A DNA stretch of 64,000 bases from Escherichia coli (GTDB taxonomy: Bacteria; Pseudomonadota; Gammaproteobacteria; Enterobacterales; Enterobacteriaceae): NCBI RefSeq assembly GCF_003334785.1, contig NZ_QOWV01000015.1; one strand, 5' to 3'. Under the pieces are notes generated by a model, which was not told the DNA's origin, did not search any database, and saw only the letters and a list, made by a program, of their open reading frames with translations. Of this stretch, positions 34,588 through 36,304 are shown piece by piece. The position numbers and the translations under genes were made by a program. Within the stretch, counting starts at the first letter, position 1; each line of letters opens with the position of its first letter.

Positions 34588-34827
34588 TTAACCATTATCG
34601 ACCACGATATTGCTTTTGCGTAACAGCGGGCAATCTGTTATCCCCAAAAAACCACTTTTAGTGTGCAAGTATTGTACCGTGCTGGTGCCTCTGGCAGTCA
34701 GATAGGTACATTGCAAACCTAATCCTGCGGCATTCTCTTTGCTTCCAATCAAAACGCCATATCCGCTGAGTAATAATCCTATCCAGACCAGTGCTATCAG
34801 CATAACTGTGCGAATGATGAATCGCAT
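34588..34827 (-). CDS. yobH: Small membrane protein YobH
   Basis: 79-aa ORF MRFIIRTVMLIALVWIGLLLSGYGVLIG... Confidence 0.8.
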   Translation of the reverse strand: MRFIIRTVMLIALVWIGLLLSGYGVLIGSKENAAGLGLQCTYLTARGTSTVQYLHTKSGFLGITDCPLLRKSNIVVDNG

Positions 34828-34985
34828 TACAACCTCTTCTCTTTTTATGTTCGCTTAATCGTAGCGGCAATATGCGCTGAAGCAAGCGACTCATTCCGAA
34901 AAAGCACGAATATCGACATAGTTAGGCGCTGTTTAACTAACGCATGCTAGTTTAATGACATAAGGTAGGTGAAACGGAGATTGGA

Positions 34986-35129
34986 GTGAAAAAGTTTCGA
35001 TGGGTCGTTCTGGTTGTCGTGGTGTTGGCTTGCTTGCTGCTTTGGGCGCAGGTATTCAACATGATGTGCGATCAGGATGTACAATTTTTCAGCGGAATTT
35101 GTGCCATTAACCAGTTTATCCCGTGGTGA
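34986..35129 (+). CDS. mgrB: PhoQ-inhibitory small membrane protein MgrB
   Basis: Not in the ORF track (47 aa); GTG start after SD GGAG gives [47 protein letters not shown]. Confidence 0.85.
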
Positions 35130-35203
35130 TATCATTTTTTCAGCACTAGATTTTCTTCCTCTCCAGCAGTGGTAGAATAGCGCCTCTACTCAGAGGTGGT
35201 GAA

Positions 35204-35491
35204 ATGAACGAAGTTGTAAATTCAGGCGTGATGAACATTGCGTCTTTGGTTGTATCGGTGGTGGTTCTTCTTATCGGGCTCATCTTGTGGTTTTTTATCA
35301 ATCGTGCCAGTTCACGGACTAACGAACAGATTGAACTGCTTGAGGCGTTGCTGGATCAGCAAAAACGTCAAAATGCACTGTTACGTCGTTTGTGCGAAGC
35401 AAACGAACCAGAGAAAGCAGATAAAAAGACCGTTGAGAGTCAAAAATCGGTTGAAGACGAAGATATTATTCGTCTGGTCGCCGAACGATAA
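35204..35491 (+). CDS. yebO: Small membrane protein YebO
   Basis: 95-aa ORF with one N-terminal TM helix. Confidence 0.8.
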   Translation: MNEVVNSGVMNIASLVVSVVVLLIGLILWFFINRASSRTNEQIELLEALLDQQKRQNALLRRLCEANEPEKADKKTVESQKSVEDEDIIRLVAER

Positions 35492-36160
35492 TCCTTCCTC
35501 AATCTTGAGTAACCCCGTCGTTGAAGGGTTACTCAATTCATCCTGATTATACGCACTGTCATGGTGCAACTGCTTCAAATTAAAACTCTGGTCTGACTTC
35601 AAATAATTATCATATTATTTATTTGCGTAACGGGATATCAGAAAAAGATATTTACCCCATTAATTTATTAGGATGTTTACATCGGATTTGTGATTAAGCG
35701 TGGTATTATTTATTAGCGAAACGTTTCTCTCTTGATTTTTTTGCTCATTCATCAATTTTTCTTATTTTAAATTTACAATCCCTTTGGGGATTGACTTCTC
35801 TTTAGGGTAATTAATAGCCGTTAACTGACTGTTTTATGAGAAAAAGTGATATAACTTTTTATTCATTGCATAGCAAAAAATGTGATATTGCACGCACTAT
35901 GTAATAACTTCTCCCACTGGCCTGGAACAACTGAACTTATTGAACTATGTTAGAAAATACGCCAGTTTAAGTATCTGCCTGAACTGGCAAGGTTAAGCAC
36001 AATGATATATCGGCGCGTATTCCGTTGCATAAGTGTGCAAAAAAAGTGGAAGACGTATCGAGATTTGTGCGTCTGATCGAGACATGTTTAAAAATGGCTT
36101 GCCATAATTAACGTTGTATGTGATAACAGATTTCGGGTTAAACGAGGTACAGTTCTGTTT

Positions 36161-36304
36161 ATGTGTGGCATTTTCAGTAAAGAAGTCCTGAGTAAACACG
36201 TTGACGTTGAATACCGCTTCTCTGCCGAGCCTTATATTGGTGCCTCATGCAGTAATGTGTCAGTTTTATCTATGTTATGCCTGCGGGCGAAGAAAACAAT
36301 CTAA
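36161..36304 (+). CDS. yobF: Small protein YobF
   Basis: Not in the ORF track (47 aa); translates [47 protein letters not shown]; 12 nt upstream of cspC. Confidence 0.8.

Follow-up and report, generated by a model that had tools for sequence, protein, structure and literature searches.

The yebO-yobF gap of Escherichia coli is probably a composite spacer that holds a conserved yobF-cspC control region

Introduction

The promoters of yobF-cspC in Escherichia coli are described in EcoCyc and RegulonDB, and the three cited from EcoCyc are yobFp1, yobFp2 and cspCp8 (PMC13162491). CspC is a global RNA chaperone, the loss of which is a recurrent adaptive event, and in aging E. coli colonies yobF-cspC mutations were found in 12 of 24 isolates. 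CyaR and OxyS pair close to the ribosome site of yobF, while the upstream genes mgrB and yebO form a single transcript, which is a CyaR target (PMC5861431). Three other described systems bear on the DNA before yobF, namely the cspA thermoregulator family (Rfam RF01766), the RNAs derived from 5′ UTRs (Adams et al., bioRxiv 10.1101/2020.07.18.207399) and the RbsR operator of rbsD, RbsR being a repressor of the LacI family, in which the branches have branch-specific operator positions (PMC4052901). The locus analyzed here shares with the EcoCyc/RegulonDB promoters the same DNA and the same transcription starts (36135 and 35959 in our numbering) with sigma-70 hexamers. Its other features are compared with these systems below.

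Results

Genes and annotation

The window, which is the whole stretch of 64,000 nucleotides analyzed, is 100% identical to E. coli K-12 MG1655, and a window position equals 1943752 minus the MG1655 coordinate. The genes of the region are as follows:

34588-34827, minus strand: yobH, 79 aa, found as an ORF and in RefSeq (b4536)
34986-35129, plus strand: mgrB, 47 aa, GTG start, found as an ORF and in RefSeq, with NCBIfam NF007635 at 89.9 bits
35204-35491, plus strand: yebO, 95 aa, found as an ORF and in RefSeq
36161-36304, plus strand: yobF, 47 aa, found as an ORF and in RefSeq
36317-36526, plus strand: cspC, confirmed as CspC by NCBIfam

An earlier, sequence-only reading had placed four small genes within 1.7 kb, with a GTG start for mgrB, and this is borne out by the ORFs and by RefSeq MG1655, with which all four agree exactly. 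In Salmonella, the orthologues are assigned to the Pfam families YobH, MgrB, YebO and DUF2527. Published transcription start sites (TSSs) lie at 34960 for mgrB (MG1655 v2 1906816) and at 35185 for yebO on its own (v2 1906591), both from the supplement of Kim et al. 2012. What lies in these 1.7 kb is the yobH / mgrB-yebO / yobF-cspC locus as annotated in E. coli K-12, which is ordinary and largely known.

The gap between yebO and yobF

The gap between yebO and yobF (35492-36160) measures 669 bp with a G+C content of 35%, which confirms the AT-rich spacer of about 670 bp proposed before, and its G+C content is lowest at 35600-35800 (0.28), compared with about 0.5 in the flanking genes. RefSeq and PGAP list no features in the gap of MG1655 and the sampled E. 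coli genomes, an Rfam search in E-value mode over 33000-38500 placed no RNA family in it, and a repeat search returned short chance pairs only, the yebO hairpin excepted. The whole spacer has been marked as H-NS-bound, with several RpoD holoenzyme peaks (Shimada 2014, PMC3946193). Very likely, the gap is a composite, in which a yebO 3′ UTR ending in a hairpin would be followed by about 150 bp of fast-evolving AT-rich filler and then by a conserved, ancestral yobF-cspC control region of about 475 bp, inside which two sigma-70 promoters and a long leader would be located.

A conservation profile built from an alignment of 76 Enterobacteriaceae, together with BLAST comparison of the gap with 75 orthologous gaps, revealed five conserved islands (A-E). 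These islands and the transcribed features around them are listed here:

35687-35770, unstranded: island A, with an RbsR-type candidate operator and a conserved promoter-like site
35763-35768, unstranded: -10 TATTTT of the putative promoter-like site of island A, from a promoter PWM scan
35858-35889, unstranded: island B, a box with the 76-species consensus GCATAACTATGC, located at 35863-35874 in E. coli
35922-35959, plus strand: island C, the distal yobF promoter, with -35 TGGAAC at 35923-35928, -10 TATGTT at 35946-35951 and TSS 35959
35959-36160, plus strand: long leader of yobF-cspC, 202 nt, with a 5′ hairpin at 35961-35988
36027-36039, unstranded: island D, GCATAAGTGTGCA, a second GCAT-N4-RTGC box that includes the 3′ end at 36036
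36063-36135, plus strand: island E, the nearly invariant proximal promoter region, with -35 TTGCCA at 36099-36104, -10 GATAAC at 36122-36127 and TSS 36135
36079-36108, plus strand: overlapping promoter-like GAGACA-18-CATAAT, which would start at about 36113
36141-36601, plus strand: yobF-cspC mRNA and terminator, matching the cspA thermoregulator (Rfam RF01766) at 135.5 bits against a gathering threshold of 78

Judged from the papers on the locus, islands A, B and D and the 36036 end appear to be undescribed in EcoCyc and RegulonDB.

Two promoters and the leader of yobF-cspC

The table of Kim et al. 2012 maps just two TSSs to the gap, both strands considered, with 249 reads and a 26-nt UTR for 36135 (v2 1905641), and 107 reads and a 202-nt UTR for 35959 (v2 1905817), which was assigned to yobF. 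The promoter hexamers at both starts are conserved in 90-100% of the 76 species. The proximal promoter, TTGCCA-17-GATAAC, has been listed as such (PMC3946193), and island E around it is about 90% identical in all 75 orthologous gaps. The distal promoter, TGGAAC-17-TATGTT, has a PWM score of 7.4, its -10 element scores at least 5 in 90% of the 76 species, and it shows the features of a sigma-70 promoter in its spacing, in a published 5′ end 6-8 nt past the -10 element and in hexamers kept at the orthologous position. The start at 35959 is probably the yobFp2 of EcoCyc. In Salmonella 4/74, TSS 1893683 and the Tn5 coordinates fit the same 202-nt UTR, as an argument from self-consistency only; in a Salmonella reporter, the fusion primer begins at GTTGTATG, and the start used is a third one, equivalent to 36113, which counts against a reading with two starts.

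The yobF-cspC mRNA ends at 36599 (Term-seq 1907153), with a further Term-seq 3′ end at 36273. Like the members of RF01766, it carries a cold-box-like element, ACGAGGTACAGTTCTG, before yobF, which is invariant in 40 species; the 202-nt distal leader, however, has no counterpart in the model, and since the match starts just 20 nt before yobF, it accounts for no part of the gap. The whole spacer had earlier been called an untranslated region, which is correct in part: according to the published ends, the transcribed portions are its first 49 nt (yebO 3′ UTR) and its last 202 nt (yobF leader).

Inside the leader, a stationary-phase Term-seq 3′ end is located at 36036 (MG1655 1907716), with an average count of 264,852, in LB at OD 2.0 alone of the three conditions, and its count exceeds that of the yebO 3′ end 5.7-fold in these LB OD 2.0 data. 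It falls between GCAUAAGUGU and a following GC, within a small hairpin that precedes A7, and may stem from cleavage, pausing or Rho. Taken together, the start at 35959 and the end at 36036 indicate that either an RNA of about 78 nt (35959-36036) or an attenuated long leader arises inside the gap. The end comes from the same dataset as the 5′-UTR-derived RNAs of Adams et al. (10.1101/2020.07.18.207399), which assigns it to the 3′ ends ahead of an ORF, at a distance of 125 nt; in contrast to those RNAs, it is not followed up there, and yobF does not appear in the main text.

The same pair of ends might be taken as an independent trans-acting sRNA gene, of which the 35922-35959 promoter mainly yields the 78-nt RNA, with read-through into yobF being incidental. 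Such a gene would have its own mapped start at 35959 and, in LB at OD 2.0, a strong "orphan" 3′ end at 36036, and other 5′-UTR fragments function as sRNAs, according to Adams et al. Though most of the 76 species keep the promoter and the box at the 3′ end (island D), the RNA body between them (35960-36022) is less conserved than any other part of the region and therefore offers no conserved seed, and the 36036 end lacks the intrinsic terminator or U-tail that Hfq-type sRNAs normally require. The 78-nt fold is no better than shuffles, the folding z-scores of -0.39 for this RNA and -1.49 for the full leader showing that the leader is not unusually structured. No Rfam family matches, the Salmonella expression tables go from yobF straight to STM1839 (yebO) with no sRNA between them, and Kim et al. 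gave the start to yobF, so that a separate sRNA gene is unlikely. The elements in the gap belong to the yobF-cspC control region and not to a separate gene.

The yebO 3′ end and the AT-rich filler

The part of the gap before island A contains two features:

35505-35536, plus strand: yebO 3′ hairpin, TTGAGTAACCC-N10-GGGTTACTCAA, an 11-bp perfect inverted repeat
35541-35686 (about 150 bp), unstranded: lineage-specific AT-rich filler, alignable within Escherichia only in the BLAST of the gap against the 75 orthologous gaps

The outermost pair of the hairpin is T-A in E. coli and C-G in E. albertii, and the yebO transcript has a "primary" Term-seq 3′ end at 35539/35540 (MG1655 1908212/3) in all three conditions. 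In about 35 sampled species of other genera, including the deep-branching Buttiauxella and Cedecea, yebO is followed, ahead of island A, by a gene for an MBL-fold hydrolase. This gene sits exactly at the position of the filler, which might accordingly be the decayed remnant of such a gene, as in the E. cloacae complex, where an unambiguous deletion scar keeps about 60 nt of the MBL gene 3′ end. E. coli, however, has no deletion scar, and tblastn (E up to 10) and blastn found no residual similarity in E. coli, Salmonella, Citrobacter and Klebsiella; with a G+C content of 28-35% for the segment, compared with 46-54% for the MBL-containing spacers as wholes, descent from the MBL gene is improbable.

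An RbsR-type candidate operator and paired boxes

In island A, the sequence AGCGAAACGTTTCTCT at 35715-35730 is identical to the rbsD (RbsR) operator at 15 of 16 positions, for which the chance expectation is 0.05 per genome. As a match to the 16-bp palindrome AGCGAAACGTTTCGCT, the CG of which is central, this candidate operator is the best in the 64-kb window, the next best having 4 mismatches, and the closest sequences upstream of add, udk and purHD are far weaker, with 5-7 mismatches to the rbsD operator. Reportedly, five sites were obtained in the RbsR gSELEX of Shimada in 2013. The operator core CGAAACGTTT occurs in 68 of the 76 species, 384-478 nt upstream of the yobF ATG (in one at 586), and the site is missing in Klebsiella and Raoultella.

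The candidate shares with the rbsD operator the form of a 16-bp palindrome and the CG at its centre; their left halves, AGCGAAAC, agree fully, and one change separates the right halves, though in distant genera that of the candidate decays to GTTTTTAT. RbsR boxes are told from PurR boxes by the discriminating bases CG-AAAC instead of GC-AAAC, and the island A site carries the RbsR signature. KdgR, PurR and Cra boxes were also considered for island A, and were rejected because the spacing or the discriminating bases did not fit their consensus sequences.

The placement of the two operators differs. The operator of rbsD is directly upstream of the rbsD start codon, a position that we take to be promoter-proximal, whereas the gap site is 236 and 412 bp from the mapped starts, with its centre at -236.5 from TSS 35959 and -412.5 from TSS 36135. 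It neither overlaps a promoter nor lies just downstream of one, and what is nearby is only the putative promoter-like site of island A, at which no TSS is mapped in the Kim et al. 2012 table. Such a distance from even the closest mapped start is odd for a LacI-family repressor.

Islands B and D have in common a GCAT-N4-RTGC box, the centre of which is at -90.5 and +74.5 from TSS 35959, respectively. The columns of island D are 80-90% conserved among the 76 species, and its flanks show no covariation as a longer stem. An extended -10 promoter in island B (TGtGATATT, start at about 35896) was rejected, as its final T is not conserved, the PWM scan gave no conserved site and no TSS row has that upstream sequence. 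Likewise, island D has the wrong spacing for a sigma-54 or NtrC site, and the published RpoN/NtrC gSELEX peak at about 36124 is within island E, not island D. CRP-like half-sites were also seen at 35689 and 36067, with weak right halves.

These features could together form an ancient, unrecognised upstream control module of yobF-cspC, comprising a near-perfect RbsR operator kept throughout Enterobacteriaceae history about 445 bp before yobF, GCAT-N4-RTGC boxes bracketing the distal promoter and a growth-phase-dependent stop at 36036 in the second box. We put this forward tentatively, as a possible but rather doubtful reading.

The dyad and TTGACT

The sequence-only reading had singled out two elements in the gap:

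35776-35793, plus strand: dyad CAATCCC-TTTG-GGGATTG, in which a perfect 7-bp stem encloses a 4-nt loop
35791-35796, plus strand: TTGACT, overlapping the right arm of the dyad

Both exist, though the dyad had been placed slightly off (35778..35793), and no acceptable -10 hexamer follows the -35-like TTGACT at a distance of 15-19 bp; TTGACT belongs to no usable promoter. If functional, the dyad would back up the termination of read-through from mgrB-yebO, stabilise a 5′ end as a hairpin or be a palindrome to which a protein binds. Its perfect stem, with 4 G-C pairs, is followed by the T-rich ACTTCTCTTT (6 T in 10, interrupted), it was listed as terminator-like, and it begins where transcription from the island A promoter-like site would start. 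When the gap was shuffled 1000 times with its dinucleotides preserved, only 7% of the shuffles held a perfect hairpin of at least 7 bp with at least 3 G/C pairs, and promoter-like elements (5 against 5.6 expected) and terminator-like elements (3 against 2.2) are at shuffle expectation; the dyad is therefore only marginally unusual.

The expectation that the dyad be conserved failed within the genus, where E. albertii and two further species have lost it, and TTGACT is absent in other Escherichia species. Even within E. coli, about one third of the genomes are just 90-95% identical over the 78 bp around the dyad, and the variants that were sampled disrupt the stem through substitutions that are not compensatory. 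On the dyad strand, Term-seq gives no 3′ end between 35540 and 36036, an interval that includes the dyad, in three conditions, the Kim et al. 2012 table has no TSS there, and the minimum-free-energy fold of the RNA, itself not distinct from shuffles, leaves the dyad unused in favor of other pairs. A function for the dyad is thus already largely refuted, and we consider it very improbable. The dyad and TTGACT have no conserved role; the dyad is a strain-level accident, and both are chance features in AT-rich DNA.

Small ORFs

That the gap encodes at least one unannotated small protein is equally remote, for, although the neighbourhood has many genuine proteins of 47-95 aa and the gap holds 19 candidate ORFs of 10-31 codons on both strands, not one of the 19 is intact in more than two of the 12 relatives compared, most have lost their start codon or frame already in E. 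albertii, the conserved islands are short (12-35 bp) and have no three-base periodicity, and the PGAP annotation is empty in the sampled E. coli. The room once seen here for further small ORFs or an sRNA does contain functional elements (five islands, the start at 35959 and the 3′ end at 36036); it holds no conserved ORF and no Rfam RNA, and the dyad and TTGACT are not the carriers. Two leads may remain, namely the candidate RbsR-type site, which is the fresh one, and the putative leader RNA.

Discussion

In the composite reading of the gap, the distal promoter would produce, from 35959, a 202-nt leader whose transcription runs on across the proximal promoter, and the latter would produce, from 36135, a 26-nt leader with the ribosome site and the CyaR/OxyS target. 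The 36036 end would then result from attenuation or processing of the long leader, curbing read-through into yobF and leaving a 78-nt fragment. The RbsR-type operator and the GCAT-N4-RTGC boxes may serve as protein-binding sites that tune the distal promoter.

RbsR has post-transcriptional effects on RpoS in Salmonella and effects on motility and virulence in Serratia, and rbsR and cspC were both recovered in one Salmonella succinate-utilisation screen. By epistasis in Salmonella, RbsR acts upstream of RpoS, whereas CspC is independent of RpoS, which argues against RbsR working via cspC in the succinate phenotype.

The real signals of the gap emerged only from alignment across species and from the published mapping of transcript ends. 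The control of cspC transcription is poorly described, and the approximately 475 bp upstream of yobF form a conserved modular control region that combines two promoters with a leader stop and with candidate factor sites, and its modules offer concrete targets for mutagenesis. If the distal promoter is under the control of RbsR, or of a factor looping both boxes, the CspC level would respond directly to ribose or carbon status, and this would provide a direct route for the unexplained pleiotropy of RbsR.

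Identity and Gene Content of the Locus

Over the 2.2 kb that surround the finding, the sequence shows 100% identity to E. coli K-12; this region occurs in all 5426 complete E. coli genomes, at an identity of at least 99% in 3047 of them. The + strand of the window corresponds to the MG1655 minus strand (window position = 1943752 − MG1655 v3 coordinate), and the RefSeq MG1655 positions of kdgR, yobH, mgrB, yebO, yobF, cspC and rlmA coincide exactly with the window ORFs. This is a known locus, correctly described by the sequence-only reading: the lengths given there for yobH, mgrB, yebO and yobF and the GTG start codon of mgrB agree with the ORF calls, and the AT-rich gap between yebO and yobF, put at 670 bp, measures 669 bp (35492-36160), with a G+C content of 35% and a trough of 28%. 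No feature is annotated between yebO and yobF in RefSeq MG1655.

Conservation of the Gap across Enterobacteriaceae

Scanning a single genome for each species yielded 80 loci with yebO, and the yebO-yobF gap could be delimited in 75 of the 80. The gap ranges from 441 to 745 bp in Escherichia, Salmonella, Citrobacter, Klebsiella and others, and reaches ~1.5 kb where a gene for an MBL-fold hydrolase (331-341 aa) comes after yebO. This metal-dependent hydrolase gene was observed in Enterobacter, Lelliottia, Leclercia, Kosakonia, Phytobacter, Buttiauxella, Cedecea and others, and starts there 17-20 nt past the yebO stop, at the equivalent of window ~35510. Two of the comparison loci that carry it are:

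L008, 4308-5303: MBL-fold hydrolase gene
L030, 4310-5335: MBL-fold hydrolase gene

The E. cloacae complex retains ~60 nt of the 3′ end of the gene as a deletion scar, indicating that it was deleted there, and no trace of it was detected in the gap of E. coli or other Escherichia. Whole-gap alignment was possible within Escherichia only (75-79% identity), and conservation across all 76 aligned sequences concentrates in five islands.

Conserved islands in the yebO-yobF gap (window positions)
35687-35770: island A
35858-35889: island B
35922-35959: island C
36027-36039: island D
36063-36160: island E

Island E closes with bases that correspond to the cold-box end of the Rfam cspA model; the model spans 36141-36601 (135.5 bits).

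Further along, the cspC-rlmA spacer (window equivalent 36527-36691) is 165 bp in E. coli and ~2 kb in Citrobacter, Klebsiella and others; the Salmonella locus carries a PBP3-like transpeptidase gene there, ftsI2 (581 aa; L083, 3586-5331), and the ~2-kb spacers presumably hold the same gene. Upstream of mntP, a match to the manganese (yybP-ykoY) riboswitch was seen at 38195-38291 (−), scoring 41.6 bits against an Rfam gathering threshold of 45 and lacking the long 3′ insertion of the model.

Promoters and Transcript Ends

Two yobF starts are listed in the supplement of Kim et al. (2012, PLoS Genet), a proximal one at v2 1905641 (window 36135; 249 reads, 26-nt UTR) and a distal one at v2 1905817 (window 35959; 107 reads, 202-nt UTR), and the table contains no other start on either strand of the gap. 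It also places starts at 34960 for mgrB and at 35185 for yebO, which has this start of its own besides that of mgrB. The proximal yobF promoter was assigned as TTGCCA-17-GATAAC by Shimada et al. (2014; PMC3946193), who found multiple RpoD peaks, together with an H-NS mark, in "the 670 bp spacer". A promoter weight-matrix scan of the alignment recovered both mapped promoters as conserved, with good scores in 90% of species for the −10 ending at 35951 and in 100% for that ending at 36127, and predicted, in 84% of species, an additional site whose −10 ends at 35768.

Across 40 aligned species, a GATC (Dam) site at 36076-36079, ~20 bp before the proximal −35, does not vary. AACGTT, the core found at the centre of LacI-family operators, occupies 36110-36115 in the spacer between the proximal −35 and −10 hexamers and is nearly invariant, with its two A's kept in at least 90% of these species.

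On the yobF strand, Term-seq 3′ ends were mapped by Adams et al. (bioRxiv 10.1101/2020.07.18.207399) at 35539/40, just past the yebO hairpin, in all three conditions, at 36273 within yobF, and at 36599, the cspC terminator. An 'orphan' 3′ end at MG1655 1907716 (window 36036) appears in their LB OD 2.0 sheet only, with an average count of 264,852, 5.7 times as high as the count for the yebO end there. According to other reports, mgrB and yebO share a transcript that CyaR targets, and yobF is targeted by both CyaR and OxyS. Several Term-seq 3′ ends also lie inside yebO, and a table of DirectRNA-seq with and without bicyclomycin gives a Rho-termination call at 35381; together these suggest that transcription ends prematurely within yebO.

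An RbsR-Type Site in Island A

The core of island A, AGCGAAACGTTTCTCT (35715-35730), has a single mismatch to the rbsD operator AGCGAAACGTTTCGCT, as read immediately upstream of rbsD in MG1655. A match this good is expected 0.05 times per genome, and the core is the best rbsD-operator match in the 64-kb window, three mismatches ahead of the next; upstream of add, udk and purHD, the published secondary RbsR targets, the best matches have 5-7 mismatches. The core CGAAACGTTT was present in 68 of the 76 species, 384-478 nt (in one case 586) before the yobF ATG, and was not found in Klebsiella, Raoultella and Intestinirhabdus. We treat the island A site as a real conserved element, a putative protein-binding site of the RbsR type. 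Simple repression from it is unlikely, since the nearest mapped start is 236 bp downstream. Our literature search found no mechanistic link between RbsR and yobF or cspC.

In the MG1655 rbsD region, the main RbsR operator is preceded, at a distance of 80 bp, by a weaker second operator-like sequence, TGTAAAACGTTTCGAG (L082, 443-458).

In Salmonella, rbsR, cspC and the yobF leader all came out of one succinate screen, and the epistasis in that study put RbsR upstream of RpoS, with CspC acting independently of RpoS. In Table 1 of the study the TSS is at 1893683 and the Tn5 insertions lie at 1893511, 1893502 and 1893137; the reporter used there begins at the equivalent of 36113. The S. enterica −10, TATGGT, predicts a 202-nt UTR, equal to that of E. 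coli, and with this length two of the insertions sit 30 and 21 nt ahead of the yobF ATG and the third within cspC, matching the authors; this fit is consistent with a 202-nt UTR but is not unique.

Paired Boxes in Islands B and D

The pattern GCAT-N4-RTGC fits island B as well as island D, the two conserved copies lying 164 bp apart and flanking the distal start at 35959:

35863-35874: GCAT-N4-RTGC box, island B
36027-36038: GCAT-N4-RTGC box, island D

The Term-seq 3′ end at 36036 falls inside the island D box. At the RNA level island D amounts to no more than a 4-bp hairpin, without covariation in its flanks, which makes a site acting in the DNA no less probable; the box is a candidate for one.

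The Dyad, the TTGACT Element and Small ORFs

A short perfect dyad picked out by the sequence-only reading is present in the gap, although one to two bases from where it had been placed (CAATCCC-TTTG-GGGATTG, 35776-35793), and the TTGACT it had described as −35-like lies at 35791-35796. Judged against chance, the dyad is only marginally unusual, an equivalent G/C-bearing perfect hairpin occurring in 7% of 1000 dinucleotide shuffles, and the promoter-like and terminator-like elements in the region are as numerous as the shuffles predict. Conservation of the dyad did not hold: its column block differs in E. albertii and two other Escherichia species, the surrounding 78 bp (35746-35823) show at least 99% identity in just 854 of 5376 E. 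coli genomes and 90-95% in 1822, and the sampled variants (CAATACC...GCGATTG, CAATACC...GAGATTG and CAATATC...GGAATTG) break the stem with no compensation. In the same variant strains, the operator-like site of island A, 50 bp upstream, is unchanged. Folding of the segment as RNA prefers another structure, and no end in the published TSS and Term-seq tables maps at the dyad. No available test indicates that the dyad or TTGACT is functional. Nor does conservation support the suggestion of unannotated small ORFs in the gap, none of the 19 ORFs of at least 10 codons being kept in relatives.

The interval 35746-35823 is a hot spot of within-species variation, about one third of complete E. coli genomes being 90-95% identical there; the operator-like site and island B, which flank it, are invariant.

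Overall, the seemingly empty gap is made up of the 3′ end of yebO, AT-rich DNA specific to the lineage and, for the cold-shock-like operon yobF-cspC, a control region with two promoters plus a long leader. Three leads of modest interest remain: the RbsR-type site, the paired boxes and a putative stop in the leader in stationary phase.
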